In this document: positions 7,145 to 43,839 of the stretch, one piece after another
Numbering within the stretch: the stretch's first letter is position 1
Layout of the letters: every line of letters starts with the position of its first letter
Assembly: GCA_030690945.1 (NCBI GenBank)
Contig: JAUYFM010000064.1
Location: 928-64,927 of the forward strand
Length of the DNA: 64,000 nt
Direction of reading: 5' to 3'
From: Smithellaceae bacterium
GTDB lineage: Bacteria; Desulfobacterota; Syntrophia; Syntrophales; Smithellaceae
The notes under the pieces: generated by a model
Told to the model about the DNA's origin: nothing
What the model saw: only the letters and a program-made list of their open reading frames with translations
Databases searched by the model: none
Program-made: the position numbers and the translations under genes

Positions 7145-7317
7145 AGTTACTTACCGTCTAGCAGTGTTTCAATATTATATAAGCAATTAATATGCCTGGA
7201 TAAATATTGTCATAACGACATGATCATATTCTACAGTCAGCGCCCGATTTATTTCAACAAAAAACTGGGGATATTTTTTTAACAACCACAATAGACAAAA
7301 CGCGCAAACCCTTGCGT

Positions 7318-7467
7318 CCCTCAATATGCTGAGGTTCCACCAGATATTGAGGCCAAACAAATCATTTCATGCCTCTCTGTCTTTCTCTTTTTTTCATCTA
7401 ATGTCATGTTATTAAAGGATCAATCCAAACTTATGACCCTCTATCAGGTATTGGCAGGATACTTGCT
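7318..7467 (+). promoter_or_regulatory. Sigma-54 promoter cassette copy 1 (tandem dyad UAS + A/T-rich spacer + -24/-12 element)
   Basis: The UAS at 7319-7352 is CCTCAATATGCTGAGG-TT-CCACCAGATATTGAGG. The -24/-12 element at 7452-7467 is TGGCAGgatacTTGCT. The ATG of the first gene lies 59 nt downstream. Confidence 0.8.
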
Positions 7468-7524
7468 GTTACAGTGGTATGATTCGGGGAAAGAAATCGT
7501 ACATCATCATGAAGGAGAAAAAAA

Positions 7525-7677
7525 ATGGTTACAATACTGATTGTTATTTTAGTTCTTGCTCTCGTTGGCGTACTGCCTACCTGGCCTCACTCTAAGAGTT
7601 GGGGATTCTACCCCAGCAGCGGCGTTGGATTGCTTCTTCTGATTTTGGTCATCTTGCTGATAGCGGGGCGGATTTAA
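7525..7677 (+). CDS. DUF3309 family small membrane protein (50 aa)
   Basis: This ORF is not in the supplied track (<60 aa). Translation is MVTILIVILVLALVGVLPTWPHSKSWGFYPSSGVGLLLLILVILLIAGRI. The LPTWP..SWG.YPSGG core is the DUF3309 signature as I recall it. A GAAGGAG RBS lies upstream. Confidence 0.75.
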   Translation: MVTILIVILVLALVGVLPTWPHSKSWGFYPSSGVGLLLLILVILLIAGRI

Positions 7678-7876
7678 ACTCAAGATCAAGAAGATCGCAT
7701 AGGGAACTCAGCAATAATCCAGAATCAGAAGAAGCAGAAGGCGCCAGTGAAAAGCTAGGCGGCGGAGTTCAGGAAAAGGTCCGTCAAAAAAAGTTCCGGA
7801 TAAGTGAACAACAAGACGCCATCGGCCTGAATATTTTTTTACTAACCCATTTAACATTTAAAAAAGGAGAAATAAA

Positions 7877-8431
7877 ATGAAACAAACCAGAATTAAATTA
7901 TTTTTCATCGTGTGTATGGCTTTGATTATAGGAAGCCTCCCGGTTTCCTCTTACGCGGCCACGGCAGGTGAGATTGATGCCGGCGTCAATGCATCCCTCG
8001 ACCGGTTTGTCAAGGAAGTCAAGGGGGCGCAGGAGTTTCTTAACGCCGCCCAGGGAGTCCTTATCATCCCTAAGGTTATCCAGGGAGGGCTTGTGGTTGG
8101 CGCCGAGTATGGTGAGGGCGCCTTAAGGATCGGCGGAAAAACGGTTGCCTATTATAACATTGCTTCCGCATCTTTCGGAGCGCAAATCGGCGGCGAGTTA
8201 AAAGACATCATCCTTGTCTTCATGGATAAAACGGTCTTGAAGAAATTTCGTAACAGCCAAAACTGGAAAGCCGGTGTGGATGCCAAGGTAACCTTGATCA
8301 ATGTCGGCGTCGATGAATCCATAAATACGATGAAAATAAAGCAACCTGTTGTGGGATTTGTCTTTGGACAGAAAGGGCTGATGGTCGGCGCCACGATAGA
8401 AGGCTCGAAATTTACCAAAATGAAAAAATAA
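7877..8431 (+). CDS. SYLF (Ysc84/DUF500) lipid-binding domain protein, secreted
   Basis: 184-aa ORF with an AAGGAG RBS and a signal peptide (LPVSSYAATA). Glycine-rich beta repeats (GGLVVGAEYGEGAL, SFGAQIGG, GLMVGATIEGS) are typical of SYLF domains. Confidence 0.7.
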   Translation: MKQTRIKLFFIVCMALIIGSLPVSSYAATAGEIDAGVNASLDRFVKEVKGAQEFLNAAQGVLIIPKVIQGGLVVGAEYGEGALRIGGKTVAYYNIASASFGAQIGGELKDIILVFMDKTVLKKFRNSQNWKAGVDAKVTLINVGVDESINTMKIKQPVVGFVFGQKGLMVGATIEGSKFTKMKK

Positions 8432-8445
8432 ACAACGAGTAAAAG

Positions 8446-8498
8446 GGGACGGTTCTAATATCCCCCCCTCTTCTGTAAAGAAGTTAGAACCGTCCCCT
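8446..8498 (+). other. Perfect 14-bp-stem hairpin between the SYLF gene and the small lipoprotein gene
   Basis: GGGGACGGTTCTAA (8446-8459) is the exact reverse complement of TTAGAACCGTCCCC (8485-8498), with a 25-nt loop. There is no T-tract. Confidence 0.6.
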
Positions 8499-8549
8499 GA
8501 ACATATTCATTCAGCAATTAGCTTTTAATAAGATAAGGAGATGCAAATC

Positions 8550-8684
8550 ATGAAAAAGTGGAAGAGTATCATCGCCGTGTTGGCAATAGTCGCCCTTATT
8601 GCGGGACTGTCGAGCTGCAAAGAAGGTCCGCTGGAGAACGCCGGTAAGAAAGTCGATAAGGCCGTAGAAGACATCAAGAAATGA
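8550..8684 (+). CDS. Entericidin EcnA/B-like small lipoprotein (44 aa)
   Basis: This ORF is not in the supplied track. Translation is MKKWKSIIAVLAIVALIAGLSSCKEGPLENAGKKVDKAVEDIKK. An AAGGAG RBS lies 9 nt upstream. It has a lipobox (GLSSC) and an amphipathic C-terminal tail of the C..EGAGK..E.A type seen in entericidin-family lipoproteins. Confidence 0.55.
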   Translation: MKKWKSIIAVLAIVALIAGLSSCKEGPLENAGKKVDKAVEDIKK

Positions 8685-8770
8685 TGGCCATGGCGCAAAG
8701 ATAGACTTCTCTCCCATGATGTTTCTCCTTCTTTAATGTTGTCTGAAACATCTCCCCATTCTGTTGGATT

Positions 8771-9616
8771 TTACAAAGCAAGGGGGATGACGTCACCTGC
8801 CAGAATGACCTTGTCGTCCTCAGTGGTAATGGCATAGGAGCTGTGCTCGACAAGTTCGTACAGATGAATATACTTGGCCACTTCCACAGGCTCGCTGGTT
8901 TTTCTGCCGAAATATTTCCCCGGCTTGCTGAAGACATCTGTAATCACTCGGTCGTCGTAGATGGAAAAATCAAAGGAACTGTCAGTATCCCGGTTGCTGA
9001 TGTTTGTTGTTGACGGCAGTTCATCGTGAAATGCAATGCGCACATTAATATTGTTACGGTATTGGGTGAGAAGGATCTTCTGAAAATCAGTCTCGGCAAG
9101 GTTCTCGCGGTTGACTACAAAAATACGGGTGATCTTCACACCGCGTTCAATGGCGCGCAGATTGGCCTGGTAGAAATTGTGCAGGGCGCCCCGGGTATCC
9201 CATCCCGTGGTTATCCGGTCCACTATCTTGGCATAGTTAGCCGCCTGCTCCATCTGTTTGGCCCCTTCCAGATTGAATTCCGTCTCGTCCATGGGGATAT
9301 ATCCCTGCTGCAAGAGCGAAATAGTCCGCATGGCGGAAGCCACCAACTCATGGGCCTTACTCTGACATTCGGGATCGCTGATTCTGGCGACGGCGAATGT
9401 CAGCTCATGGGCTTGGTTATACTGTTCAAGCAATTCTGCACGGGTCTTTTCGATATCGTCCCGCAACAGATAGGTGACCAGTGATAGGAGGACGCCGATG
9501 CCAAAGATGGTATAGGCAGCTTCCGGATACCGGAGCACCTGGTGGAAAAAGACGGCAAGGGCTGATCCTGCGAGAAATTCGATCAGGACAGCTATTTTCT
9601 GTATCTTGATATTCAT
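8771..9616 (-). CDS. Hypothetical membrane-anchored protein (2 N-terminal TM segments, unknown C-terminal domain)
   Basis: 281-aa ORF. Its start overlaps the stop of the upstream EEP gene by 4 nt (ATGA). I recognise no confident family. The C-terminal strand pattern (GVKITRIFVV...INVRIAFHD...DFSIYDDRV) loosely resembles a PLD repeat but lacks HxK. Confidence 0.5.
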   Translation of the reverse strand: MNIKIQKIAVLIEFLAGSALAVFFHQVLRYPEAAYTIFGIGVLLSLVTYLLRDDIEKTRAELLEQYNQAHELTFAVARISDPECQSKAHELVASAMRTISLLQQGYIPMDETEFNLEGAKQMEQAANYAKIVDRITTGWDTRGALHNFYQANLRAIERGVKITRIFVVNRENLAETDFQKILLTQYRNNINVRIAFHDELPSTTNISNRDTDSSFDFSIYDDRVITDVFSKPGKYFGRKTSEPVEVAKYIHLYELVEHSSYAITTEDDKVILAGDVIPLAL

Positions 9617-10599
9617 GAGTAATTTCCTTTTTTATTTAAGAAGGATTCCGGTAAATTAATATGAGAAAAAAGCGGAAAATGGTCCGAGGGATAGCGCCTC
9701 TTTTGTCGCAATTGAATGATTTGCGCATTCTGCACACTAACCGTAGAAGGAACAAAAATATAATCAAGCTTGAAACGGAAAAAAAATCGGCGATACCCGT
9801 GGAACGTGGCCGCATTGCGATGGTCGGGATATCTTACACGAAAGGTGTCGGTTAAAGGGTTGGGGTTTTGCACCTTCCCTTCCGCTTTGGTGTTGATCAG
9901 CGTTTTACCTTTTAAATATTGTATCGGCACACTCTTTTCTCTGGCATTGAAATCACCGGTCAAAACGAAAGCGTCCGGATAAGACCGCGCATGAATCCGC
10001 CGGGTCAACAGGATGACGCCTTTTTTTCGTGAACGCTGCGAAAGATGATTTAAATGGGTATTATAAAAATAAAATGCCTGCCCGGATTCTTTTTCAATCA
10101 GCCGCGCCCACGTGCAGTTTCGCGGCATGATATTTCCCCATCCTCTTGACTCCGGAATATCAGGTGTGTCCGAATACCAGAAAGCGCCTTCTTCAGAAAG
10201 AACGAAACGTGCCACCTTATAAAAAATGGGATTATGCAAAACTTTATTGTCGCCCGAGCTGATAATGTTGACCATCTCATAGCCGGGAAGCATGGCGCGA
10301 ATTTCAGAAATTTGAAAATCCAGAGCTTCCTGCAGACCCAAAACATCCGGGGAATAATCCTTCAATATCTCATTCACCAGATCGCGGCGGAATATCCAGT
10401 GATTTTTGCCATCCTGCTTTGTTCCGCGTCGGATATTGAAACTCATAATATTGATATTCAACCCGGTATCGGGCAGCACATCAGAAAACGAATCCGCAGG
10501 TAATTGGTGATATCTGCGTTTTGAACGGAACCTCCCCAGCCATTTTACCGTCCGGGAAACCGGCCTGAATGTTTTTTTGACGAATTGCAGTTGTTTCAT
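9613..10599 (-). CDS. Endonuclease/exonuclease/phosphatase (EEP) family protein
   Basis: 328-aa ORF carrying EEP motifs: IMSFNIRRG, VLGLQEA, LTGDFN and a C-terminal PSDHFPL. Confidence 0.8.
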   Translation of the reverse strand: MKQLQFVKKTFRPVSRTVKWLGRFRSKRRYHQLPADSFSDVLPDTGLNINIMSFNIRRGTKQDGKNHWIFRRDLVNEILKDYSPDVLGLQEALDFQISEIRAMLPGYEMVNIISSGDNKVLHNPIFYKVARFVLSEEGAFWYSDTPDIPESRGWGNIMPRNCTWARLIEKESGQAFYFYNTHLNHLSQRSRKKGVILLTRRIHARSYPDAFVLTGDFNAREKSVPIQYLKGKTLINTKAEGKVQNPNPLTDTFRVRYPDHRNAATFHGYRRFFFRFKLDYIFVPSTVSVQNAQIIQLRQKRRYPSDHFPLFSHINLPESFLNKKGNYS

Positions 10600-10743
10600 T
10601 TTCTATCTTTTCCTTATCTAAACCGGTCGGGATTCTTTTCAATTCACAATTAATGATTATAATAGCTTAAGCATGAAATTGAAAAAGGCAAATCCTTCTG
10701 ATGGGGAATGTGCATGATTTTTTTTAAAATAAAGAATAAACCG

Positions 10744-12135
10744 ATGAAAACCGTCAAACTTGTCTTTTTGTTTTGTTTGTTCCTATCCATTTTGAACCTC
10801 GGCAATGGATGTGCGACCTTGCCGAATGTGTCTGAAAAAATGAATGAGGCACCGGTTGGACAGAAACCCCGTCAGATCGCTTCGTCAAAAGGACTCTTAT
10901 CTCCCCAAAAAAGCAAGGCCATCATGGAACGTCTGAAGAAATCGGTCAACCCGACGGACATTCTGGAACGTTACACTGCAGTGGTAGAATCGGTCACAGA
11001 AAGCCCGCTGACCAAGGGGAACAAAGTTTCCTTGCTTATTGATGGTCCGGCTACCTATGCCGCGATGTTCGAAGTTATACGGAATGCCAAAAACCATATC
11101 AACTTGGAAACATTTATCATCGAAGATGATGAGATTGGTGGTAAATTTACTGACCTGCTGTTGAAAAAACAGAAGGAAGGCGTTCGGGTCAATATTATTT
11201 ACGACAGCGTTGGAAGCCTGACAACACCCGAATCTTTTTTCAAACGCTTGAGGGACGGGGGAATTCAGGTGGTCGAATTCAATCCGGTAAGTCCGTTCAA
11301 GGCTCCCGGAAGCTGGTTCCTGATGCACCAGGATCACCGCAAGATTTTGATTGCTGACGGTAAAGTCGCCATTATCGGAGGTATCAACATCAGCAACGTT
11401 TATTCAAGCAGGCTTTCCGGCAGGAAGAAAGTAAAAGGAGAGCCTCTAACCTGGCGTGATACAGATATCCAAATTGAAGGACCTGCTGTAATGGAAGTCC
11501 AAAAGCTTTTTCTGGAAACCTGGTCCAAGCAGAAAGGACCGACACTCGCCGGACACAACTATTTACCCGATCAGAAAGAATACGGAAAGGCTCTGGTGAG
11601 AATCGTTGGCAGTACACCAGGCACGGACAACCGAATTACGTTTATCATGTATGCGGCCGCGATCACGTATGCGGAGCATTCCATTCATCTGACAAATGCC
11701 TATTTTATCCCGGACGATCAAATATTAGATGCCTTCAAGGATGCTGCCCGGCGCGGTGTTGATGTCAAGATTATTCTCCCCTCAACCACCGATTCATCGC
11801 TGGTCTTAAACGCAGCGCGGCATAATTATTCCGGGCTTCTGAAAGCGGGGGTGAAGATATACGAACGCCGCACCGTCCTCTTGCATGCGAAAACTGCGGT
11901 CATTGACGGCGTCTGGTCAACGGTCGGCTCCACAAATTTGGATTACTGGAGCCTCCTAAGCAATGATGAGGTGAACGCGGTTGTCCTGAGTCGTGAGTTC
12001 GCGGTAGAGATGGAGCGCATGTTTGCCAATGATCTTGCCCAATCCGACCAGATTCAAAAGGATAAGTGGGAAAAGAGGCCTTTATCGCAAAAAATCAAGG
12101 AGGCGGCTGCACACTTATTTGCCCGTTGGCTGTAA
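10744..12135 (+). CDS. cls: Cardiolipin synthase-like phospholipase D family protein (two HKD motifs), lipoprotein-type N-terminus
   Basis: ORF 10708-12135, with the ATG at 10744 (MKTVKLVF) preferred. It has the lipobox-like LGNGC. The two HKD motifs are HRKILIADGK..GGINIS and HAKTAVIDG..VGSTNLD. Confidence 0.85.
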   Translation: MKTVKLVFLFCLFLSILNLGNGCATLPNVSEKMNEAPVGQKPRQIASSKGLLSPQKSKAIMERLKKSVNPTDILERYTAVVESVTESPLTKGNKVSLLIDGPATYAAMFEVIRNAKNHINLETFIIEDDEIGGKFTDLLLKKQKEGVRVNIIYDSVGSLTTPESFFKRLRDGGIQVVEFNPVSPFKAPGSWFLMHQDHRKILIADGKVAIIGGINISNVYSSRLSGRKKVKGEPLTWRDTDIQIEGPAVMEVQKLFLETWSKQKGPTLAGHNYLPDQKEYGKALVRIVGSTPGTDNRITFIMYAAAITYAEHSIHLTNAYFIPDDQILDAFKDAARRGVDVKIILPSTTDSSLVLNAARHNYSGLLKAGVKIYERRTVLLHAKTAVIDGVWSTVGSTNLDYWSLLSNDEVNAVVLSREFAVEMERMFANDLAQSDQIQKDKWEKRPLSQKIKEAAAHLFARWL

Positions 12136-12193
12136 GACATCGCCGAAGATCGGTTTACACCAGCAAAAAAGGTCAAATGCAGAATGCTTCCCT

Positions 12194-13276
12194 ATGAGAA
12201 AAATCAAACGGTTTAGTTTTTTTACCCTATTTCTTGCGGCACTTTTAGTTGGCGACGGTTCTATGACCGTCAACGCTGTTCACGAGGAGGGAACGACGCA
12301 AGGAAAACAGCAGCTGGCGCATCATACGACGAATGGTTTTCGCAATATTTATGATTATCCGGAACACGGATTCGCGAGTTTTCTGCGCTGGAAATTGGGG
12401 CGCGCACCTGATGAAGGACCGGCCATTATCCCTGTTCAGAAGATACCCTATGCGCCGGATATTGTTGCACCGGATTATCAGCGTATCGATCATCCCAATC
12501 CCGCTAAAATACAGATTACCTGGATAGGTCATGCAACATTTTTAATCCAGGTTGAGGGGATCAATATCTTAACGGATCCTGTTTTTAATAACAAAGCATC
12601 GCCTCTTGGCATTGGGTTTGAACGGAAGAGTCCTCCGGGGATACCCTTTGATCGCCTGCCGCCGATCCATGCCGTTCTCCTGAGTCACAATCACTATGAT
12701 CATCTCGATTTATACACGGTTAAAAAGTTGGGAAACTCGCCAAAATATTTTATCCCTCTGAAGCTTGGACAGTGGTTCCGCGATCAGAAGATTACGAACT
12801 ATACGGAGATGGATTGGTGGAACACATCGATCTTCAAAGGCATCCGCGTTGTGTCTGTACCGGGCCAGCATTTCTCCAGGCGAGCCGTCCGTGACGGCAA
12901 TAAAACACTTTGGGCAGGGTGGGTACTGGAAACGAAACACGGGAAGATACTCTTTGCCGGCGATACGGGATACTCTCCCCATTTTAAGGAAATCAGAGAA
13001 AAGCTGGGGCCGATGCGCCTGGCGCTATTGCCCATCGGGTCCTATCGACCTCGTTGGTTCATGAAGACCATCCATATGGACCCCCCGGATGCCGTGTCCG
13101 CCCACAAGGATCTGCAGGCAGAGCAATCCATTGCTATGCATTGGGGGACCTTTTATATAGCCGATGAACCGCTGGGTGAACCGCCCCTCTATTTAAAAAG
13201 AGCCCTGAAAGAGGCGTCCATCAGTGATGATTCCTTCCTGATAATGAAATTTGGTGAAACGCGGATTTTTGAATAA
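12194..13276 (+). CDS. MBL-fold metallo-hydrolase, NAPE-PLD-like
   Basis: ORF 12023-13276, with the ATG at 12194 (MRKIKRFSFF, signal peptide) preferred. It carries the HxHxDH motif LLSHNHYDHLD. The overall length and order resemble N-acyl-phosphatidylethanolamine-PLD-type Zn hydrolases. Confidence 0.75.
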   Translation: MRKIKRFSFFTLFLAALLVGDGSMTVNAVHEEGTTQGKQQLAHHTTNGFRNIYDYPEHGFASFLRWKLGRAPDEGPAIIPVQKIPYAPDIVAPDYQRIDHPNPAKIQITWIGHATFLIQVEGINILTDPVFNNKASPLGIGFERKSPPGIPFDRLPPIHAVLLSHNHYDHLDLYTVKKLGNSPKYFIPLKLGQWFRDQKITNYTEMDWWNTSIFKGIRVVSVPGQHFSRRAVRDGNKTLWAGWVLETKHGKILFAGDTGYSPHFKEIREKLGPMRLALLPIGSYRPRWFMKTIHMDPPDAVSAHKDLQAEQSIAMHWGTFYIADEPLGEPPLYLKRALKEASISDDSFLIMKFGETRIFE

Positions 13277-13380
13277 AAACAGGATGAAAAGTCTGCTCTT
13301 CTGCTCCTGTGGAAAAGTGAGGATCTGCCCGCTATCTTCGATACGCAACGGATTGAAAATACGGAGGCCCCGGAGAGTAT

Positions 13381-13529
13381 CCCTCAACATGCTGAGGTTC
13401 TGCTAAATATTGAGGCCACTTAAATCCTTTCATGATTTGCTGCTGTTCTTTCACCTTAAGCAAACATCCTGTTATTAAAGGATAATCCAATTTTCTGATT
13501 TTCATTCGTCTATTGGCCGACTATTTGCA
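13381..13529 (+). promoter_or_regulatory. Sigma-54 promoter cassette copy 2
   Basis: The UAS at 13382-13415 is CCTCAACATGCTGAGG-TT-CTGCTAAATATTGAGG. The -24/-12 element at 13514-13529 is TGGCCGactatTTGCA. The ATG at 13623 lies 95 nt downstream. Confidence 0.75.
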
Positions 13530-13622
13530 ATTATTAAACAATCGCTATGCTTTCGTCTAATGGAAGGGCATCTTTTTGAATAAATCCAACTCTGCTCACT
13601 GGTGGGATTTAAGAGAGGTAAC

Positions 13623-14873
13623 ATGATACCGAATCAGGGACCCTTTGGATCCCCCCCCAAGGAAAAGCGCTCCCGCGTGATTCGCATCGAGCCCGCTCCC
13701 GGCGCCATTATCGCTGTGCTACTCATCATCGCCGGCCTGTGGATGCTAAACCAGCTTCTACCGGTGGTTCTGGTACTCGTAGCCGCCCTCATCATCGTCG
13801 GCACCATAAGTCCCGCGGTCCAGTGGTTCGAAGATCGGCGCCTGCACCGGGGTCTGGGCATTGCAATAGTTTTCACCGCGCTCCTGGCGGTCACTGTTCT
13901 CTTTATCACCATGACGATTCCATCACTCATGGCGCAGGTGACAAGCCTTGTGGACCAGGAACCCGCTCTGCGGGCACGCCTCACAAATTGGTTAGCGGGC
14001 TCCCATCTGACCAGCCCCCTGGCAGAACTGCTTCGTAAAGTACACTCCGGTGACCTTGTAAAGATGGTCACCTCGAATGCCCTTGAGATCTCCACCCACG
14101 CCGTCACGATCCTCGCGTATATCCTGAGTTCCGTATTCCTCGCGCTGTACATCATGATCGACCGGGATCGGCTGCGTGGAGGCATCTTCTCGGTAGTTCC
14201 CCGGTCCCATCACATACGGCTTTCCCGGGTCATGCTGAATCTGGAAACCATCGTCGGTGCTTATATCCGCGGGCAGGTAATCACCTGTGCTTTCATGGGC
14301 GTCTTCGTGTACATTATCCTGACCGCCTGCGGTGTTTCCAACGCCCTGCCCATCGCGGTATTTGCTGGTGTTGCCGATGTCCTTCCCTACATTGGCCCCC
14401 TGTTTTCAGTGGGCGCCGCAGTGGTGGCAGCTATCTCTCGCGGCCCCGCCGTCATTATCGTCGTGCTCGTGCTGATGATCGCCTACGAGGAACTCGAGAG
14501 CCGTTTAATCATTCCCCGGGTCTATGGACGCGCATTGCGACTCCCGTCGTCAGTGATCCTTCTGTCGCTTTTGGCAGGAGGCGTTTTATACGGCATCACC
14601 GGGGCACTTCTTGCCCTTCCGGTGGCGGCGGCGGCACGGATGCTCATCGAGGAACTGCGCGTCGAGCTGCCGGGGCAGCAGGAGCAGGCAAAAGATGTGG
14701 AGATCAGGGAACGCGACGACCGCGGTGAAGAGGAGTATGAACGCCGGGCCGAAGGCATGCCCGCTGAGCAGGCCGCTGCCATCGCCGTCGAGATCTCCAC
14801 CGATCGTCATAAGGAAGAGAAAAGTTTGCCAGCGAAAACGGCTGCACCCGGCAGCGATGGGAAACAGGGCTGA
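13623..14873 (+). CDS. AI-2E family transporter (PerM/YhhT-like) with a charged C-terminal tail
   Basis: ORF 13602-14873, with the ATG at 13623 preferred because of the AGAGAGG RBS. It is a multi-TM protein with an AI-2E-type core (VLPYIGP, LALPVAAA). Confidence 0.75.
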   Translation: MIPNQGPFGSPPKEKRSRVIRIEPAPGAIIAVLLIIAGLWMLNQLLPVVLVLVAALIIVGTISPAVQWFEDRRLHRGLGIAIVFTALLAVTVLFITMTIPSLMAQVTSLVDQEPALRARLTNWLAGSHLTSPLAELLRKVHSGDLVKMVTSNALEISTHAVTILAYILSSVFLALYIMIDRDRLRGGIFSVVPRSHHIRLSRVMLNLETIVGAYIRGQVITCAFMGVFVYIILTACGVSNALPIAVFAGVADVLPYIGPLFSVGAAVVAAISRGPAVIIVVLVLMIAYEELESRLIIPRVYGRALRLPSSVILLSLLAGGVLYGITGALLALPVAAAARMLIEELRVELPGQQEQAKDVEIRERDDRGEEEYERRAEGMPAEQAAAIAVEISTDRHKEEKSLPAKTAAPGSDGKQG

Positions 14874-14892
14874 GCCGAACCGGAGAGTGGCC

Positions 14893-15864
14893 ATGACCTT
14901 AAAAAATATCTGGATTCTGATTAAAGCCGCGGCATCATCCTGGGTCGACGACTATGCACAAAGCATGGGAGCGGCACTGGCTTACTACACCTTGTTCTCG
15001 ATCGCACCTTTATTGCTGATTGTGATTTCGGTTGCCGGGCTTATTTTCGGTGTCGAAGCGGCGCGCGGCGAAATTGTCGGACAATTGCAAGGCCTGATGG
15101 GGCGGCAGGGCGCCGAGGCTGTACAAGGTTTGCTCGAAAGTGTGAACAAGCCAGCCGAAAGCGTCACCGCCATGCTGATCGGGGGAATTCTGCTATTAAT
15201 CGGTGCAACAACGGTGTTCGCCGAATTGCAGGATGCCCTGGATCGTATATGGCGCGCACCCAAAAGAAACAACAGTGGAATCTGGGAATTGCTGCGCGAG
15301 CGTGTGCTATCTTTAGGTATGATCATGGGCATCGGCTTTTTATTAATGGTGTCACTGGTGGTTAGTGCGGCGCTGGCCGCACTGGGAAAATTGTGGGGAC
15401 CTCTGTTCGCAGACTGGGGAATCATTGCAAACGTGATTGAGCTTCTGGTCAGCTTCGTTTTCACCACAACCATGTTTGCCATGATCTACAAGATCATGCC
15501 ACGCGTGAAAGTTGACTGGGCGGACGTGTGGATCGGCGCCGCTGTAACCGCTCTGCTCTTCACGATCGGCAAATTCCTGATCGGGTTCTATATCGGCAAG
15601 AGCGGTTTGACTTCGGCATTCGGCGCCGCCGGTTCGCTGGTTGTCATGCTGGCGTGGGTGTATTACTCCGCCCAGATATTCCTGATGGGCGCGGAATTTA
15701 CCTGGGCTTATGCGCTGACATTCGGATCGCACAGAGAGCAGCCGGTACCCGCCGCTGCGCCCATTGTTCCAAGCCAGACGGCAAAAGGACAGCCTGATAA
15801 ACACATGATTGCAGCGAAGCAAGCAGCGGTGGCGGGGCCTATCGAAAAGATCAAAAACAAATAG
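14893..15864 (+). CDS. YihY/BrkB family membrane protein
   Basis: The track ORF 14611-15864 is over-extended. The ATG at 14893 gives MTLKNIWILIKAAASSWVDDYAQSMGAALAYYTLFSIAPLL, the canonical YihY N-terminus. Confidence 0.8.
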   Translation: MTLKNIWILIKAAASSWVDDYAQSMGAALAYYTLFSIAPLLLIVISVAGLIFGVEAARGEIVGQLQGLMGRQGAEAVQGLLESVNKPAESVTAMLIGGILLLIGATTVFAELQDALDRIWRAPKRNNSGIWELLRERVLSLGMIMGIGFLLMVSLVVSAALAALGKLWGPLFADWGIIANVIELLVSFVFTTTMFAMIYKIMPRVKVDWADVWIGAAVTALLFTIGKFLIGFYIGKSGLTSAFGAAGSLVVMLAWVYYSAQIFLMGAEFTWAYALTFGSHREQPVPAAAPIVPSQTAKGQPDKHMIAAKQAAVAGPIEKIKNK

Positions 15865-15965
15865 CTGAAGAGAGACTCCCGAACACTTATGAGGCCTCCG
15901 GTGGTCAGGAGAAAAAAGCATCCATTCACTGGAAAAAGAATATAAGGGAACATAGGGGTGAATCC

Positions 15966-16160
15966 ATGGATCACAAGCAAAAAAAGGACCTGCAAAAGAA
16001 GACAGAAAGAAAACAGGACAACAAGGAGAAAAAGAAAAGCCAGAAGATACGAGAGTGGGAACAGTCAAAGGGAACCAGGGTCATCCGTCCCGTCTGGTTT
16101 GCCGTGGTGGGGCTCACGCTCTCTATGGCGGCATTGCTCTACTGGTTTTTTCTCCGGTAG
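15966..16160 (+). CDS. Hypothetical small protein: Lys/Gln/Glu-rich N-terminus plus one C-terminal TM
   Basis: 64-aa ORF with a weak AGGGGTG RBS. I recognise no family. Confidence 0.35.
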   Translation: MDHKQKKDLQKKTERKQDNKEKKKSQKIREWEQSKGTRVIRPVWFAVVGLTLSMAALLYWFFLR

Positions 16161-16237
16161 TCTCAGTCTATTCTTGAAGGAGACGCATCCGATCGATCTC
16201 AATATGATAACAACGTAACCATACAAACGGAGGTGAT

Positions 16238-16597
16238 ATGCGTAAAATTATTGTTGCCATCTTTCTTGTTTTAACATTTCTTTGTTCCTGCTCAAATTTA
16301 AACAATGCTACCAAACCGAAACCTGATGATGCTATTAAACTGAAACCCGATGATGCCATTGCTTACAGCAACAAGGGGATTGCTTACAATAACCGCGGCC
16401 AGTATCAGCGTGCCATTGAAGAATACAACGAGGCCGTCAGCCTGAAGTCTAACGATGCCTTGCACTACACCAACCGGGCGGGTGCTTATTTTATGCAGGG
16501 CAACAAAAAGCTTTTCTGCCGTGATATACAAAAAGCTTGCACATTGGGAGATTGCAAATTGTTAGAAATGGCTAAAGGCAAGCATTATTGCCCCTGA
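16238..16597 (+). CDS. TPR-repeat lipoprotein
   Basis: 119-aa ORF with a GGAGGTG RBS and the lipobox FLCSC. TPR-like repeats are present (AYSNKGIAYNNRGQYQRAIEEYNEAV, LHYTNRAGAYFMQGN). Confidence 0.7.
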   Translation: MRKIIVAIFLVLTFLCSCSNLNNATKPKPDDAIKLKPDDAIAYSNKGIAYNNRGQYQRAIEEYNEAVSLKSNDALHYTNRAGAYFMQGNKKLFCRDIQKACTLGDCKLLEMAKGKHYCP

Positions 16598-16668
16598 TTC
16601 AGTTGGGTGTTATCGATGCACTGTTTTAAAAATGTTGTCATATTAATGAAACTCTCTGATGTCTCATC

Positions 16669-16715
16669 TGGTTCATGAAGACCATCCATATGGATCCCCC
16701 GGATGCCCCGTCCGC
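16669..16715 (+). pseudogene. 47-bp fragment of the MBL-hydrolase gene (copy of 13055-13101)
   Basis: 44 of 47 nt are identical to 13055-13101 (TGGTTCATGAAGACCATCCATATGGA.CCCCCGGATGCC..GTCCGC). The fragment lies in non-coding DNA 10 bp upstream of cassette copy 3. Confidence 0.75.
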
Positions 16716-16724
16716 TCAAAGTAT

Positions 16725-16874
16725 CCCTCAACATACTGAGGACCCACCAGATATTGAGGTCAAATGAGCGTCTCATGCTTTTAAAACTTTCTTTGCCGAC
16801 CAACCTAACAACCCGATATTAAATAATTAATTTAATATTCACGTTTGGACTCGGCTCTTGGCAAGCTACTTGCT
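16725..16874 (+). promoter_or_regulatory. Sigma-54 promoter cassette copy 3
   Basis: The UAS at 16726-16759 is CCTCAACATACTGAGG-AC-CCACCAGATATTGAGG. The -24/-12 element at 16859-16874 is TGGCAAgctacTTGCT. The ATG at 16907 lies 34 nt downstream. Confidence 0.8.
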
Positions 16875-16906
16875 AATATATTTGTATATTCAAAAGGAGG
16901 TTTGTC

Positions 16907-17107
16907 ATGAAATGGACAGGTATGTATCTTATGGGTTATGTTATCCTGATTGGTGGTCTTCTCGCTGCGCTTTGGAAAATGGGTGTTTTGGCCAGCATCG
17001 GTACAGCATGGACCCTGATTGCAGCGGTGATCGCAATTGGTATTGGCATCATGCTCGCAGTCGTCAGTAGCAGTAATAAAGGAAATATCGAAATCGGCCG
17101 AAAGTGA
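16907..17107 (+). CDS. Hypothetical small membrane protein (66 aa, 2 TM)
   Basis: An AAGGAGG RBS lies 7 nt upstream. Two hydrophobic helices are present. It is the first gene after cassette 3. Confidence 0.6.
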   Translation: MKWTGMYLMGYVILIGGLLAALWKMGVLASIGTAWTLIAAVIAIGIGIMLAVVSSSNKGNIEIGRK

Positions 17108-17156
17108 ATTATAAAAACATCGGTTCAGACAGAGCTGAGAAAGGAGGCCAAATACC

Positions 17157-17291
17157 ATGCAAATCGCCATATCGCCACAGCCGGTGGTTTCTTTAATCGC
17201 GGGAATATTGATTTTTATTTTCCCGAAACTATTAAATTATATCGTTGCCATCTATCTCATTGTCATTGGCATTCTCGGGTTGATCCGCTGA
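17157..17291 (+). CDS. DUF3096 family small membrane protein (44 aa)
   Basis: This ORF is not in the supplied track. Translation is MQIAISPQPVVSLIAGILIFIFPKLLNYIVAIYLIVIGILGLIR, preceded by an AAGGAGG RBS. The P.LL.YIVAIYLI..G...LI ending is the DUF3096 pattern as I recall it. Confidence 0.65.
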   Translation: MQIAISPQPVVSLIAGILIFIFPKLLNYIVAIYLIVIGILGLIR

Positions 17292-17333
17292 TGGGATTGC
17301 CAATTTTTTATTTAAATTATTGAGGGAGGATGT

Positions 17334-17783
17334 ATGATTTCAAAAATTCTTGTGCCGTCAGACGGATCAAAAACAGCACAAATAGCAGCCTTGTTCGCGG
17401 TTGACATCGCAAAACAGTTGAAAGCCTCCATTATTGTGCTGAGCGTTATTGATCAGCGCTCACTGATTGCTCAGACGGCACCAGCATCTAAGACACCCAG
17501 GCACACCATAGAACCTATGGAAGACTATCTGCAAGAGGCCGCCGGAGAGTATGCCGGAGAAATAAAGAAACTGTGCGATAAAAGCGGTGTTGCCGCGACG
17601 ATTTTGATCAAGATGGGGCATCCCGTGGAGGTGATAGTGAAAGAGGCGAAAAGGTCAAAGTCAAATCTTATTGTCATGGGCTCCCATGGCCGGAGCGCCT
17701 TATCAGCCACCGTCCTTGGCAGTGTTTCTTATGGCGTTATCCACAATGATAAAAGCATTCCCGTCCTTATTGTAAGGGGTTGA
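17334..17783 (+). CDS. Universal stress protein (UspA family)
   Basis: 149-aa ORF with a GAGGGAGG RBS. It begins KILVPSDGS and carries the C-terminal ATP-binding motif LIVMGSHGRSALSATVLGSVS. Confidence 0.9.
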   Translation: MISKILVPSDGSKTAQIAALFAVDIAKQLKASIIVLSVIDQRSLIAQTAPASKTPRHTIEPMEDYLQEAAGEYAGEIKKLCDKSGVAATILIKMGHPVEVIVKEAKRSKSNLIVMGSHGRSALSATVLGSVSYGVIHNDKSIPVLIVRG

Positions 17784-17833
17784 TCGCCATTGGGCACAAG
17801 CCCGAAAAGAAGGAAAGAAAGGAAAAGTTTATT

Positions 17834-18169
17834 ATGACAGAGCATGAAAAACCACAGGATCATTTATTCGTTGGATTACTGATCGGAGGGGCTTTAGGCG
17901 CATTAGCCGGCATTCTCTTCGCACCGAAATCCGGAAAAGAACTGCGCTCTGAGATCAGGGAGAAAAGAAGCGCGGTTTTTAAGGATGCAAAAGAAATTTA
18001 TGCTGATGCCAGTACGAAAGCAAAAGAGATTATTGAGGAGGCCACGCATCAAGCGATGGCGTTAAAGAAGGACGCCGATAGACATCTCGCAGAGACACGC
18101 CAAAAAACAAAAGAGATTTTGGCCCATGGCGAAAAAAAACAGGCCGAAGCCGGTGTTACAGAAAAATAA
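17834..18169 (+). CDS. YtxH domain-containing protein
   Basis: The ATG at 17834 lies within ORF 17780-18169. It has a TM segment followed by the LFAPKSGKELRSEI motif and a long charged helix. Confidence 0.8.
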   Translation: MTEHEKPQDHLFVGLLIGGALGALAGILFAPKSGKELRSEIREKRSAVFKDAKEIYADASTKAKEIIEEATHQAMALKKDADRHLAETRQKTKEILAHGEKKQAEAGVTEK

Positions 18170-20576
18170 GACACAGAGGAAAATAAAATCTCAACCCGAA
18201 GGTGATGATCATAAATCCACTGATAGCGATTCTATTGGCCATGAGTATTGCTATCAGTGGGGTTCCCTATTGGCAGCACGGACATTCCGGCGTATCCGCT
18301 CAGTCTTAGGCGGACTGCGGTGGCAGCGTGGCCTCATTCGCCTTCTGATTTGCACGACCGTCATGATAATCACTCTCGTTGCGCTCGGATTATATCGCAT
18401 CTATTTTGATAGAACCAACCTGCCTGCCCTAGAACCATTTACCCGTTTTGAGTTTGCAACCATCGGTCACGTATACGATGCCAATGGTCAGCCGCTCGTG
18501 GAAATGGCCAGAGAGTACCGACGGAATATCCGGTATCAGGACATTCCACCAGTTGTTCGAGATGCGATCCTCGCCGCCGAGGACAAGAATTTCTTCACCC
18601 ATAACGGCGTTGACTATTCCGTCATTCCTCGCGTCCTCAGCAAAATCAGATTCGGAACGCTGGCAACAAGAATTACAACATTAAGCCGTGAGGACGAGGT
18701 GAAGAGCGAGGCGATCTTCCCGCATGGCGGATCGACCATCACCCAGCAACTCGTGCGGTGTCATTTTCTCAAAGACCTGACGAGTTTCCAAAACATGACG
18801 GCTCAGGAAAACAGCGATCAACTTCTGCACGGCGTGCTCTTGCCCCGTGTACTGTCCTATCTGATTGGTTCACAAAGCGTCAACATGATGGTGCGGAAGC
18901 TCGAGGAGATTCGACTGTCCTTGTGGGTCGAAAACAAGATGCAGGAGCACTTCGGTTCCAAACACCGCGCCAAGGAAGAAATTTTGGCCCGCTACGCCAG
19001 TTTGATCTACATGGGAAATGGTCAGTACGGATTTGCGGCAGCAGCGGAATATTATTTTGGCCGGCCTCTCACTACATTCACCGTGGATGACGCAGACAAG
19101 GCAGCCGTGCTTGCCTCTATCGCCAAATCACCGCGCAACTACGCGCCCGGCGCGAATAACTCAGAGAGAAGCTTGCACCGGAGAAATCAAATTCTGGCGC
19201 TGATGACGACAAACGGTTTCATTTCTCAAGACAGACTGAAGGATGCCGAACAACGCCCGATTCAGGCCGCCGTAGGACGCAAAAACAAGGCGCTTCTGGG
19301 GTCTGCGGTTGTAAGCAATGTCCTGGAAGAGCTCAAAGGCCGCCATGTCGACCTCAGCATTGAAGACCTTCTGCAGGGCCGCATCCAGATTTACTCGACG
19401 GTGGACGCCCGGGTGCAACAAATTGTGGACGATGCCCTCGAGCATGGTCTCGCGCTTTACGAGAAGCGGCGCCCTGCCGCCAAAGGGCTGATCCAGGGTT
19501 CTGTCGTTGTGCTGAGAAATCGTGATGCAAGCATTCTCGCCGAAACGGGTGGCCGCAGGCTCTACCAGGACCGTTCCAGTTCATACAGCGATTTTAACCG
19601 CGTCACAAAGTCTCTGAGGCAACCGGGTTCCGCGATGAAACCTATTGTCTATCTCGCTGCGTTTCAGCAGGGAATATTTAATCTGGATACGCTGGTTCCC
19701 GACGAACCCATCAGCGTTCCCGACAAAGGGAAACAGAAGACGAAATGGATCTCAAACTACGATGGTCAATTCAAAGGCATGATCCCGCTCAGGGAAGCCC
19801 TGGCACAATCCAGAAACGCCGTGGCAATTTGGATCACCGAACGGATTGGGATTGACAGCGTCATGTGGATGGCGCGTAGCCTGGGGATCCAAACACCGCT
19901 TTCGCCCTATGTCACAACTGCGCTAGGTGCGTCCGAAGTGAATTTACTGGAGTTGGCCAATGCGTATCGTACAATGGCCTCGGGCATCTTCGCGAAGCCG
20001 TATGTGATCCGAAAGATCGTTAACAATTCCGGTGAGGTGGTAGCCGATAATGATCACAGCAAACCTCCGGTCGCCGTCGTCCTCTATGCGCTTGCGCTCA
20101 TTCAGGAAGGCCTGCGCGGTATTGTGCGCATGCCCTCCGGCACGGCTCATGCGCTTGAAGCAAGCGGTTTTCCGATCCCCGTTATGGGAAAGACAGGAAC
20201 AACCAATAACTTCAGGGATGCGCTCTTTGTAGGGTCCACTTACGGCCCTGAAGGAATCACTATTGCCGTGCGTATCGGCTTTGATGACAACCGTTCCCTC
20301 GGACACAAAGAAACCGGCGGCCGGGTTGCGCTTCCGGTGTTCAGAAAAATTATGCTGAACGTGTACCGCAAAATGCTGGCGGGACCTGTGCCTGCATTTC
20401 CGGTTCAAATGGAACAAAGGATTAATAATTACCTGAAAGGCGATCCCGTTGAAGATGCGTCGGCACCGGAGAAAAATATCCCTCAAAATACTGAGGCTCC
20501 ACCAAATATTGAGGCCAAACGAATCATTCCAAATCATGTGCTGCTCTCTCTTTTTCCTCTAACGTTCCGTTATTAA
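18126..20576 (+). CDS. Class A penicillin-binding protein (PBP1A family: glycosyltransferase + transpeptidase)
   Basis: 816-aa ORF. GT51 motifs are EDKNFFTHNGVD and GGSTITQQL. Transpeptidase motifs are SAMKP (SxxK), SRN and KTGTT. It overlaps the ytxH-like gene by 44 nt, and its 3' end runs into cassette copy 4. Confidence 0.85.
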   Translation: MAKKNRPKPVLQKNKTQRKIKSQPEGDDHKSTDSDSIGHEYCYQWGSLLAARTFRRIRSVLGGLRWQRGLIRLLICTTVMIITLVALGLYRIYFDRTNLPALEPFTRFEFATIGHVYDANGQPLVEMAREYRRNIRYQDIPPVVRDAILAAEDKNFFTHNGVDYSVIPRVLSKIRFGTLATRITTLSREDEVKSEAIFPHGGSTITQQLVRCHFLKDLTSFQNMTAQENSDQLLHGVLLPRVLSYLIGSQSVNMMVRKLEEIRLSLWVENKMQEHFGSKHRAKEEILARYASLIYMGNGQYGFAAAAEYYFGRPLTTFTVDDADKAAVLASIAKSPRNYAPGANNSERSLHRRNQILALMTTNGFISQDRLKDAEQRPIQAAVGRKNKALLGSAVVSNVLEELKGRHVDLSIEDLLQGRIQIYSTVDARVQQIVDDALEHGLALYEKRRPAAKGLIQGSVVVLRNRDASILAETGGRRLYQDRSSSYSDFNRVTKSLRQPGSAMKPIVYLAAFQQGIFNLDTLVPDEPISVPDKGKQKTKWISNYDGQFKGMIPLREALAQSRNAVAIWITERIGIDSVMWMARSLGIQTPLSPYVTTALGASEVNLLELANAYRTMASGIFAKPYVIRKIVNNSGEVVADNDHSKPPVAVVLYALALIQEGLRGIVRMPSGTAHALEASGFPIPVMGKTGTTNNFRDALFVGSTYGPEGITIAVRIGFDDNRSLGHKETGGRVALPVFRKIMLNVYRKMLAGPVPAFPVQMEQRINNYLKGDPVEDASAPEKNIPQNTEAPPNIEAKRIIPNHVLLSLFPLTFRY

Positions 20577-20628
20577 TGAATTAATAAAATCTTCTGATTC
20601 TCCTTCGGCTATTGGCAGACTCCTTGCT
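20480..20628 (+). promoter_or_regulatory. Sigma-54 promoter cassette copy 4
   Basis: The UAS at 20481-20514 is CCTCAAAATACTGAGG-CT-CCACCAAATATTGAGG and lies inside the PBP ORF. The -24/-12 element at 20613-20628 is TGGCAGactccTTGCT. The ATG at 20685 lies 58 nt downstream. Confidence 0.8.
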
Positions 20629-20684
20629 ATTACAATTGGTATGATCATGTTCATTATACATCGTACGAAAGAAGGTTCTTTTTT

Positions 20685-20993
20685 ATGATCCTTGTCATCA
20701 CACGCATGAAGGTCATCTCTGAGAAACGTTTGGAGTTGTCCCAGACGATTGCTTCACTATCCGGTTCTATCAGGAAGGAGAAGGGATGTAAGCGTTGCGA
20801 CTTCTGCCAGAGTATCGAGGATGAAGATCGACTCTTTCTTATCGAAGAATGGGATACCAGGGAAAATCTTATGAACCACATGAAATCGGAGAACGCGAGT
20901 GTGTTCCGGGGTGGTGCGCAGAATCTTCTCCAAGGTCCATATGAAAGGAGATTCCACACCGTTTTCAGCCCTGCAGGGATGGCGGAGACTTAA
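20685..20993 (+). CDS. Antibiotic biosynthesis monooxygenase (ABM) family protein
   Basis: 102-aa ORF with the ABM pattern GC.RCDFCQSIEDEDRLFLIEEWDTRENLMNHMKSE. Confidence 0.7.
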   Translation: MILVITRMKVISEKRLELSQTIASLSGSIRKEKGCKRCDFCQSIEDEDRLFLIEEWDTRENLMNHMKSENASVFRGGAQNLLQGPYERRFHTVFSPAGMAET

Positions 20994-21045
20994 AAAGTCA
21001 CGCAATGAATCATTTAACAATCAGTCTTATTTGAGAGGAGTAACC

Positions 21046-21153
21046 ATGAAATTGAACATCCTGCAACCATGCGCCAGAGACCAGGTCCCGATATTGAGTT
21101 ATATCGTCACGGTCTTTCTCATCACCATTGGCATTTCTGCGCTGATCCGCTGA
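21046..21153 (+). CDS. Small membrane protein (35 aa), truncated DUF3096-like paralog
   Basis: This ORF is not in the supplied track as such. Translation is MKLNILQPCARDQVPILSYIVTVFLITIGISALIR, preceded by a GAGAGGAG RBS. Its C-terminal half aligns with that of the DUF3096 protein at 17157-17291 (YIVAIYLIVIGILGLIR). Confidence 0.45.
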   Translation: MKLNILQPCARDQVPILSYIVTVFLITIGISALIR

Positions 21154-21258
21154 TTGGTTTGCGCATCTCGTATAAATAGGACCCCGCAATGATGGAAGTC
21201 TTGCGGGATGAAAGAATTCAAACAACAACCGTAAAAACAACAAAAGGAGAACGGACAA

Positions 21259-22014: not shown

Positions 22015-22035
22015 AGTCCGGAATCAAATTAACCA

Positions 22036-22077
22036 CTCATTGCCTTCCGGCACGGGAGTGTACCGGAAGGCAATGAG
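22036..22077 (+). other. Perfect 15-bp-stem hairpin between the BON gene and the lmo0937-type gene
   Basis: CTCATTGCCTTCCGG (22036-22050) is the exact reverse complement of CCGGAAGGCAATGAG (22063-22077), with a 12-nt loop. There is no T-tract. Confidence 0.6.
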
Positions 22078-22106
22078 AATAAATTATCAGAGGAGAGGAG
22101 AATCAT

Positions 22107-22256
22107 ATGTTGTGGACAATTGCTGTAGTATTGTTAATTTTGTGGGCTCTGGGGCTGGTGACAGGTTATACGATGGGTTCTTTTATTCATGTCCTGCTGG
22201 TCATTGCAATAATTGTTGTACTCGTTAGAGTCATTCAGGGGCGACGGGTCATTTAG
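22107..22256 (+). CDS. lmo0937-type small membrane protein (49 aa)
   Basis: This ORF is not in the supplied track. Translation is MLWTIAVVLLILWALGLVTGYTMGSFIHVLLVIAIIVVLVRVIQGRRVI, preceded by a GGAGAGGAG RBS. The MLWTI..VL.ILW.LG...Y..G..IH.LLVIA..V pattern is characteristic of that family. Confidence 0.75.
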   Translation: MLWTIAVVLLILWALGLVTGYTMGSFIHVLLVIAIIVVLVRVIQGRRVI

Positions 22257-22364
22257 AAGACGAACATGAGAATTATTTTATGAGATAGACGCATCGGGGT
22301 TGGGGGACCGGTAAGGTGTTTTATATTGATCCGGCCCCTCTTTAGAGAAAGAGGGAAGCAACTC

Positions 22365-43813: not shown

Positions 43814-43839
43814 TGCTTGAGCTTATAGGGAAGCGGAAT

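Follow-up and report, generated by a model that had tools for sequence, protein, structure and literature searches.

The stretch of DNA described here (the window) is a 64,000-nucleotide section of the genome of a Smithellaceae bacterium (GenBank assembly GCA_030690945.1, contig JAUYFM010000064.1, positions 928 to 64,927 of the forward strand), and it carries four copies of a cassette whose features point to enhancer-dependent sigma-54 promoters in front of a set of envelope and stress genes. The four cassettes are all co-oriented (+) and begin at 7318, 13381, 16725 and 20480. Each comprises two tandem 16-bp dyads, considered here as a candidate upstream activator sequence (UAS), an A/T-rich block that lies approximately 90 bp past the start of the UAS, and a near-consensus -24/-12 element. 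The window copies begin with CCCTCAAnATrCTGAGG, followed by two bases and then by CyrCyArATATTGAGG, and the T of TGGC in the -24/-12 element lies 134, 133, 134 and 133 bp from the first C of CCCTCA in cassettes 1 to 4, respectively. A ribosome-binding site and a start codon, at 7525, 13623, 16907 and 20685, follow in every case 33-94 nt past the TTGC. The four segments can be aligned over approximately 190 bp with a mean column identity of 67%, and their G+C content is 38-41%, compared with 48% for the window. A first-pass annotation of this DNA had described four segments sharing this architecture; they read as it described at all of its coordinates, the dyad and -24/-12 strings that it quoted are exact in all four copies, its distances between dyad and TGGC were reproduced on re-measurement, and the ribosome-binding site and start codon that it had placed after the -12 element are present in all four. 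Its view that the segments are homologous modules, and not just convergent motifs, is borne out by the 190-bp alignment and by the occurrence of the same module at more than 100 foreign loci.

The limits of the modules are those of matches to an nhmmer profile that was built from 102 cassettes of other genomes and contains no window sequence; this profile has exactly four matches in the window, with E-values of 1e-33 to 1e-46, and nothing else above noise. Cassette 1 spans 7312-7487 (+; E = 1.2e-46). Its UAS, CCCTCAATATGCTGAGG-TT-CCACCAGATATTGAGG (7318-7352, +), consists of two tandem dyads with centres 18 bp apart and is followed by the A/T-rich block GTTATTAAAGGATCAATCCAA (7408-7428, +), a possible region for DNA bending or for binding of integration host factor (IHF) that has no IHF-consensus match at up to one mismatch, and then by the -24/-12 element TGGCAGgatacTTGCT (7452-7467, +), with TGGC-N7-TTGC at 7452-7466. 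In cassette 2 (13367-13536, +; E = 1.7e-39), the two dyads of the UAS, CCCTCAACATGCTGAGG-TT-CTGCTAAATATTGAGG (13381-13415, +), precede an A/T-rich block with an IHF-like site (13471-13500), AATCAGAAAATTG at 13488-13500 on the - strand, which differs from the consensus WATCAANNNNTTR by one mismatch, and the -24/-12 element TGGCCGactatTTGCA (13514-13529, +; TGGC-N7-TTGC at 13514-13528). Cassette 3 (16705-16887, +; E = 3.1e-33) has the two-dyad UAS CCCTCAACATACTGAGG-AC-CCACCAGATATTGAGG (16725-16759, +), the A/T-rich block GATATTAAATAATTAATTTAA (16815-16835), with IHF-consensus matches at one mismatch on both strands, and the -24/-12 element TGGCAAgctacTTGCT (16859-16874, +; TGGC-N7-TTGC at 16859-16873). 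The corresponding features of cassette 4 (20471-20650, +; E = 2.6e-45) are the two dyads of CCCTCAAAATACTGAGG-CT-CCACCAAATATTGAGG (20480-20514, +), the block GTTATTAATGAATTAATAAAA (20569-20589), again with one-mismatch IHF matches on both strands, and the element TGGCAGactccTTGCT (20613-20628, +; TGGC-N7-TTGC at 20613-20627). The A/T block of the first-pass annotation is thus present, with the qualification that in copy 2 it is one base shorter than in copy 1, and the bend site that it expected there is matched by the IHF consensus, at up to one mismatch, in copies 2-4 and not in copy 1.

According to Pfam assignments, the genes behind the cassettes form four operons on the + strand. The first (7525-8431) encodes a DUF3309 small membrane protein (7525-7677) and a protein with a Ysc84/SYLF domain (7877-8431), and the second (13623-15864) an AI-2E family transporter (13623-14873) and a BrkB/YihY family membrane protein (approximately 14896-15864, with an uncertain start). 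Operon 3 (16907-20576) comprises genes for a 66-aa membrane protein (16907-17107), a universal stress protein (Usp; 17334-17783), YtxH (17834-18169) and a class A penicillin-binding protein, PBP1A (18126-20576), and operon 4 (20685-22014) genes for an ABM-domain protein (20685-20993) and an OsmY-like protein with three BON domains (21259-22014). Directly past the BON gene, a terminator scan detected a G+C-rich hairpin with an 18-bp stem (22036-22077), likely to be the terminator that ends operon 4. The order of operon 3, in which a cassette is followed by PBP1A, is also found at another locus (L012). The PBP1A reading frame overlaps cassette 4 by about 97 bp (20480-20576), UAS included, so that its last 32 or so codons (…NIPQNTEAPPNIEAKRIIPNHVLLSLFPLTFRY) are encoded by the UAS and adjoining cassette DNA; as the L012 orthologue stops earlier, this tail looks like incidental read-through into regulatory DNA.

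The dyad-1 pattern has four matches on the + strand of the window at zero to one mismatch, compared with an expectation of 1.1 even at three mismatches, and none of 100 shuffles reached the observed count. The string TGGC-N7-TTGC occurs at seven sites in the 64 kb, four of them at the fixed distance from a dyad pair. The exact dyad counts, the fixed spacing, the alignment and the matches to the foreign profile together exclude chance. A further dyad-like match at 29005, with three mismatches and within a queC-like gene, was dismissed as fortuitous, as were the TGGC-N7-TTGC strings at 49764, 54079 and 54300, which are all intragenic and lack dyads. In all four cassettes the promoter elements display the traits of the sigma-54 class, with GG and GC doublets exactly one helical turn apart, a sequence context resembling TGGCAC-N5-TTGCW and a co-oriented gene downstream.

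The distribution of the cassette was assessed by scanning GTDB species genomes with a pattern restricted to the dyads (CCTCA-N6-TGAGG-N10-TATTGAGG, 18 specified bases). At least 119 loci were found, nearly all in metagenome-assembled genomes (MAGs) of 'Deltaproteobacteria'/Thermodesulfobacteriota, and carriers among the matches listed include Syntrophaceae, Smithella, Syntrophus, Syntrophorhabdus, Desulfatiglandales, Desulfobacterales, Desulfobulbaceae, Geobacter and Desulfuromonadales. A promoter element, TGG[C/T/A]-N7-T[T/C]GC, lies 130-135 bp downstream in 102 of the 127 matches listed (at 133 bp in 41 and at 132 bp in 38), and positions that the pattern leaves free are strongly conserved, with the consensus CCCTCAATATATTGAGG-TT-CCACCAAATATTGAGGCCAAAC and, further on, …GAGG-TT-CCACCAAA-TATT…GAGGCCAAAC. 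About 10 of these 127 matches (in Lachnospiraceae, Bacteroidetes, Chloroflexi, Clostridia and a cyanobacterium) have neither the conserved free bases nor a promoter and were set aside as random; a back-of-envelope estimate, not computed with a tool, puts random matches to the 18-base pattern at about 17. Perfect cassettes were also observed on short contigs binned with Nitrososphaerota, Bacteriovoracaceae and Bacillota MAGs (L006, L009, L059), which are most likely mis-binned Thermodesulfobacteriota contigs and not real occurrences outside the phylum. A motif scan of related genomes, as the first-pass annotation had proposed, recovers promoter-linked cassettes with the dyad pattern. Closed genomes that carry cassettes include OY759599.1, JAXHLQ010000001.1 and CAXXXE010000004.1.

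An information profile computed over 106 distinct cassettes has its peaks at the two dyads, at the block CTAAtc.ccTGTTATTAAAggATgAaTccAa, at the -24/-12 element, which with the cross-genome consensus TgTTGGCAggCcatTTGCt is the most conserved part of the cassette, and at a short TATGAT at the predicted start of transcription. In dyad 1, the three variable bases beside each CCTCA arm (ATA, ACA, GCA or GTA) vary independently between the arms (chi-square p = 0.35), which fits half-sites read by a protein dimer and not a compensatory stem. In most of the 106 cassettes, dyad 2 has a left arm that is non-palindromic (CCACCA, CCGCCA or CTGCCA), and its right arm is identical throughout, being fixed in the foreign copies by the search pattern. 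The IHF consensus is found at up to one mismatch in approximately 38 of the 106, with matches clustered 90-110 bp past the start of the UAS, a zone equivalent to about -70 to -40 relative to the predicted start, and conservation of the block TGTTATTAAA exceeds that of typical IHF sites. Involvement of IHF is plausible from these matches, and intrinsic curvature or a different protein may account for how strongly TGTTATTAAA is conserved. Two additional conserved segments were observed in the window copies. Right behind the UAS, at 7353-7375 and equivalent positions, lies GCCAAACaaATCATTTCATg, the 20-25 bp past dyad 2 being conserved across genomes; judging by its position, this segment might be a third, degenerate contact of the activator or a site for some other factor. 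The sequences TATGAT, TATGCT, TATATT and TATGAT (7478-7483, 13540-13545, 16884-16889 and 20638-20643) stand about 11 nt past each TTGC and are kept across the 106 foreign cassettes, and may represent an initially transcribed sequence that acts on open-complex formation or escape.

The genes behind foreign cassettes resemble those of the window. An open reading frame (ORF) starts within 260 nt downstream of 93 of 102 foreign cassettes among the matches listed, and 277 downstream proteins, ten window gene products among them, were clustered. The largest cluster, with 29 members, contains ABM-like proteins of about 100 aa, usually encoded by the first gene, and the ABM protein is the commonest first gene product behind cassettes in other genomes. 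It is followed by clusters of BON/OsmY (18 members), CsbD/YtxH (16) and OmpA with DUF4398 (8). Other recurring families are DUF5670, DUF3309 peptides, Usp, a sigma-70-family factor, LTXXQ, Band_7/SPFH and an N-type ATPase operon, and PBP1A, AI-2E, BrkB and SYLF recur behind foreign cassettes as they do in the window; all window gene families are found elsewhere except the 66-aa protein. General and envelope stress regulons of other phyla typically have such a gene repertoire, with CsbD, YtxH, BON/OsmY, Usp and small membrane proteins among the hallmarks of general stress regulons.

The cassettes are also linked to a particular kind of regulator. Among the matches listed, a gene for a bacterial enhancer-binding protein (bEBP) stands beside the cassette in 25 of 119 motif-selected loci, typically on the same strand and ending about 28 bp before the UAS. 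The C-terminal 400 aa of these bEBPs, which comprise a coiled-coil linker, an AAA+ domain with GAFTGA, a lid and a helix-turn-helix (HTH) domain of the HTH_8 type, are 74-92% identical to one another (two outliers, 56-59%). Their N-termini differ, with REC, one or two PAS domains, GAF plus three PAS domains, or almost nothing. As loci selected by motif were possibly biased, the linkage was re-tested starting from the protein, membership of the clade being defined as at least 75% identity of the output module to ...AENIYFRQE...GAFTGA...HPSTLRARMHKLGI. A cassette lies behind the bEBP gene in all six contexts fetched by protein, where the genes that follow it encode ABM, BON, DUF5670, OmpA, Usp, CsbD, BrkB or AI-2E. 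In 80 protein-selected metagenome loci, with cassettes counted within 400 bp downstream, a cassette accompanies 42 of the 47 bEBP genes at or above 75% identity, mostly 0-12 bp past the stop codon, compared with 2 of 26 in the sister clade at 62-70% identity, both of these at 70%. This specificity identifies the clade, by genomic association, as the cognate activator.

A search with the 346-aa output module returned more than 7,220 clusters (at 90% identity) with E <= 1e-100, and all of the best 120 matches share 87-95% identity and have names that are generic or automatic only. No NCBIfam equivalog fits the clade, the best being FhlA with 380-393 bits, where the cut-off is 830. Among named bEBP families, FhlA is likewise the nearest by sequence; its residues 332-688 (linker, AAA+ and HTH) align with the output module of the clade, and many clade members have been automatically annotated as 'formate hydrogenlyase transcriptional activator'. 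Membership of that family was rejected on score, domain architecture and targets: unlike FhlA, the clade scores far below the cut-off, has no FhlA-type N-terminal GAF pair and has no hyc or hyp targets, its targets being stress genes. Two clade members were never found on one contig among the 119, 8 and 80 loci considered. On one soil MAG contig (L122, 6462-11341), genes for a KaiC-like ATPase, two KaiB proteins and a stand-alone PAS protein precede a sensor-less clade bEBP; this arrangement hints that a KaiBC-type module may feed the same enhancer system.

The window encodes a bEBP of its own, a 459-aa REC-AAA+-HTH protein of the NtrX-like type with GAFTGA (51663-53042), which forms a - strand pair (51663-55288) with a 740-aa HAMP-PAS histidine kinase, NtrY-like. 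It was considered as the cognate regulator and rejected, being only about 42% identical to the clade with a differing HTH region. The presence of this GAFTGA protein indicates that the genome uses sigma-54; rpoN itself is not in the window. Clade homologues derived from Logan all come from sequencing runs other than that of the window. At another locus (L126), the stress island of window positions 1-22000 has a syntenic counterpart that includes genes for AI-2E, a PLD-type cardiolipin synthase, Exo_endo_phos, DUF5670, BON and an ADP-forming acyl-CoA ligase, and there a clade bEBP gene lies 3-7 kb from these island genes. In view of this synteny and of the bEBP gene there, the arrangement of the island seems old and conserved, with the regulator gene absent or relocated in the present MAG.

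From this combination of features, it is highly probable that each cassette is a complete enhancer-dependent sigma-54 promoter unit, activated by a member of this uncharacterised bEBP clade and driving the stress-gene island. In the model that we propose, sigma-54 RNA polymerase would occupy the -24/-12 element (TTGGCAgG-N4-TTGCT) in a closed complex, and two adjacent dyads, located approximately 160-125 bp upstream of the predicted start, would recruit dimers of one bEBP, which would assemble into an active AAA+ ring. The first of these dyads would be read as CCTCAA-N4-TTGAGG and the second as CCACCA-N4-TTGAGG, with its conserved off-consensus left arm. The A/T-rich block at about -70 to -40 would bend the DNA, probably with IHF, such that the ring reaches sigma-54, and hydrolysis of ATP by the ring would then open the promoter. 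The putative activator would combine a near-invariant output module (coiled-coil linker, AAA+ and HTH_8) with interchangeable sensors (none, PAS, PAS-PAS, GAF-PAS or REC) and would be encoded elsewhere in the Smithellaceae genome, outside the window. The four promoters would switch on a 15-kb envelope and general stress island (DUF3309, SYLF, AI-2E, BrkB, Usp, YtxH, PBP1A, ABM and BON), itself presumably belonging to a regulon that is conserved in several lineages of Thermodesulfobacteriota. The data show the architecture, its conservation, the gene content and the genomic link to the bEBP clade; we infer that the activator binds and the DNA loops, that RpoN is required, where transcription starts and that there are inducing signals.

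Several observations weigh against this model. With dyad centres 18 bp apart, the two bound dimers would face different sides of the helix, an unusual arrangement for which the model does not account. The assignment of IHF is weak, the Escherichia coli consensus being met in only about one-third of the cassettes and not in window copy 1. The full 190 bp is conserved, and some of its stretches, such as GCCAAACGAATCATTTCAT behind the UAS and the TATGAT at the predicted start, have no assigned function and are left unexplained by the model. Finally, the cognate bEBP gene is absent from the 64-kb window and from the 10 kb past its right end, where the extension (L121) contains genes for transport and for CoA-transferases but none for a bEBP; its presence in the genome is thus inferred. 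No record matched the protein at the left end, and a look-up with the BON protein (21259-22014) yielded just a Logan contig of 1.5 kb.

The absence of the clade from the window lends some weight to an explanation in which the sigma-54 promoters are real and the dyads are bound by another protein, be it a repressor, a regulator of another class or the NtrX-like bEBP at 51663-53042, which with its kinase is only 31 kb away, the neighbouring clade being merely co-regulated. We consider this improbable, as the window bEBP has only about 42% identity to the clade and a different HTH region, the cassette tracks the clade (42 of 47 loci at or above 75% identity versus 2 of 26 in the 62-70% sister group), and the clade bEBP gene stands upstream of the UAS instead of behind the promoter and is therefore not simply a member of the regulon. 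Transcription from ordinary sigma-70-type promoters, with TGGC-N7-TTGC fortuitous, is hardly credible. Nothing specific speaks for it beyond matches to sigma-70-like promoters at background level in the region (21 versus 19.8 expected from shuffles), none of which lies inside a cassette or between a UAS and its start codon in any of the four cases, and the -24/-12 element that it would treat as accidental is more strongly conserved across 106 copies than any other part of the cassette.

Two further explanations would deny the dyads a role as activator sites. The presence of several copies of about 190 bp per genome, with an alignable spacer and with one copy overlapping the end of a coding frame, could be expected of an interspersed repeat (REP, MITE or another mobile or selfish element) in which the palindromes and TGGC..TTGC are incidental. 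This is very unlikely, given that the window copies are all co-oriented and stand 33-94 nt before a start codon, that 93 of 102 elsewhere point into an ORF, that the downstream genes form one functional set, that placement relative to the bEBP stop codon is fixed and that the peaks of conservation coincide exactly with the dyads, the A/T block and the -24/-12 element. In addition, no terminal inverted repeats or target-site duplications were noticed by eye in the flanks, a feature for which no systematic test was made, and its distribution over several orders lacks the patchiness and strain specificity that are usual for mobile repeats. A similarly slight chance attaches to the palindromes being RNA or DNA hairpins, such as terminators of the upstream genes, attenuators or a small RNA. 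Dyad 1 can be folded into a 6-7-bp hairpin, the copy-4 dyad was flagged on the - strand in the terminator scan, and cassettes often begin right behind a stop codon. Against this, the variable arm positions change independently, with no compensation; dyad 2 is kept as CCACCA...TTGAGG in most of the 106 cassettes, which breaks a hairpin and fits an asymmetric protein site; no T-run follows the dyads on the + strand; and a fixed distance to the -24/-12 element is not expected of a terminator. No Rfam family corresponds to the cassettes, a search of 6500-23000 at a permissive threshold returning only three chance-level miRNA and snoRNA matches (E > 0.2), all outside them. Activation of sigma-54 promoters by the bEBP clade through paired dyad sites thus stays the preferred reading.

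Tandem activator sites are combined with an IHF bend in classical sigma-54 enhancer promoters such as those served by NtrC at glnAp2, NifA at nifH and PspF at pspA. The cassettes resemble these in the -24 GG/-12 GC spacing, in dyads located more than 100 bp upstream and in the A/T-rich region between, and the candidate activator likewise has, by Pfam, an AAA+ sigma-54 interaction domain and a C-terminal Fis-type HTH. They differ in the new dyad CCTCAA-N4-TTGAGG, in centres only 18 bp apart, in the asymmetric second site, and in that the entire 190-bp unit is conserved across orders and within genomes with spacing held to about 2 bp. The conservation of sequence and spacing over 190 bp across orders, the asymmetry of dyad 2 and the near-invariant output module attached to many sensors are unusual.

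Sigma-54 has been connected to stress responses in other systems. In the sulfate reducer Desulfovibrio vulgaris, the bEBP DVU3305 controls UspA-domain and membrane proteins that are induced by several stresses, as part of a three-component 'general stress' system in which a REC-type regulator is coupled to a Lon-domain response regulator, and its regulon is small and local (Rajeev et al. 2011, PMC3333781; Kazakov et al. 2015, PMC4641369). The DVU3305 site, GTTGC-N4-GCAAC (PMC3333781 supplement), is unlike the cassette dyad, and with no motif match to the cassette this is a different system; the first-pass annotation's remark that it recognised the dyad as the site of no characterised bEBP agrees with the absence of a match to the sites checked, DVU3305 among them. 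In Borrelia burgdorferi, a bEBP and sigma-54 drive a stress and adaptation programme through the Rrp2-RpoN-RpoS cascade (PMC4014564). That cascade acts at a single promoter (rpoS), without a comparable family of enhancer cassettes or a direct regulon of several operons, and, unlike in Borrelia, no sigma-factor gene lies behind any cassette of the window. At two other loci (L009 and L077), a cassette precedes a gene for a sigma-70-family factor, suggesting, by analogy, a cascade comparable to that of Borrelia. Among general stress regulons built on alternative sigma factors are those of sigma-B in Bacillus, sigma-S in E. coli and EcfG in Alphaproteobacteria. Their gene content (CsbD, YtxH, BON/OsmY, Usp and small membrane proteins) is shared by the cassette-linked genes, in contrast to the cis element, which here is an enhancer with a sigma-54 promoter, and to the predicted control, which would rely on an ATP-dependent activator with no partner-switching or anti-sigma step seen. 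Literature searched by motif and by topic (sigma-54 general stress, Deltaproteobacteria, Geobacter, and Syntrophus/Smithella) gave no description of the motif, the clade or the regulon, and neither a paper on the Geobacter RpoN regulon nor a 2025 survey of sigma-54 mentions the motif or the regulon.

Other features of the window lie apart from the cassettes. The NtrY/NtrX-like pair at 51663-55288 (-) is unrelated to them. At 34631-36159 (-), inspection by eye suggests genes for what we take to be a 319-aa AbiEii-type nucleotidyltransferase toxin and a 205-aa AbiEi-type antitoxin, beside a truncated ATPase-like ORF (36446-37069), and this may be a small defence or toxin-antitoxin islet. Two tandem paralogous genes at 43340-44298 (-) encode proteins of 152-157 aa (MK..YAIKYVELAEQHAEKMAKRWA… and …HWAADVKKNKRTVHYKDIADEKL…).

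Since the mechanism of enhancer, bend and sigma-54 is a textbook one, the advance would lie in a new regulon and a new regulator family and not in a new principle. More broadly, and only tentatively, the cassette may be the cis unit of a sigma-54 general stress response common to several classes of Thermodesulfobacteriota (Syntrophia, Desulfobacteria, Desulfobulbia, Desulfuromonadia and Desulfatiglandales), a functional counterpart of sigma-B, sigma-S and EcfG built on a bEBP and not on a dedicated sigma factor. On this proposal, a constant AAA+/HTH output with swapped sensors (PAS, GAF, REC with kinases, or sensor-less and KaiBC-linked) would converge different stresses on one enhancer, possibly via mixed hexamers of paralogues, with feed-forward through the cassette-driven sigma-70-family factor in some lineages. 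Being compact (190 bp) and strongly conserved, the cassette could serve as an inducible promoter module, and the transfer of annotation to thousands of MAG genes becomes possible. Little is known about how a general stress response is organised in sulfate reducers, syntrophs and Geobacter-type bacteria, many of which have dozens of orphan sigma-54 activators; for them, the finding ties a precise DNA motif and a defined activator clade to a coherent set of stress and envelope genes.

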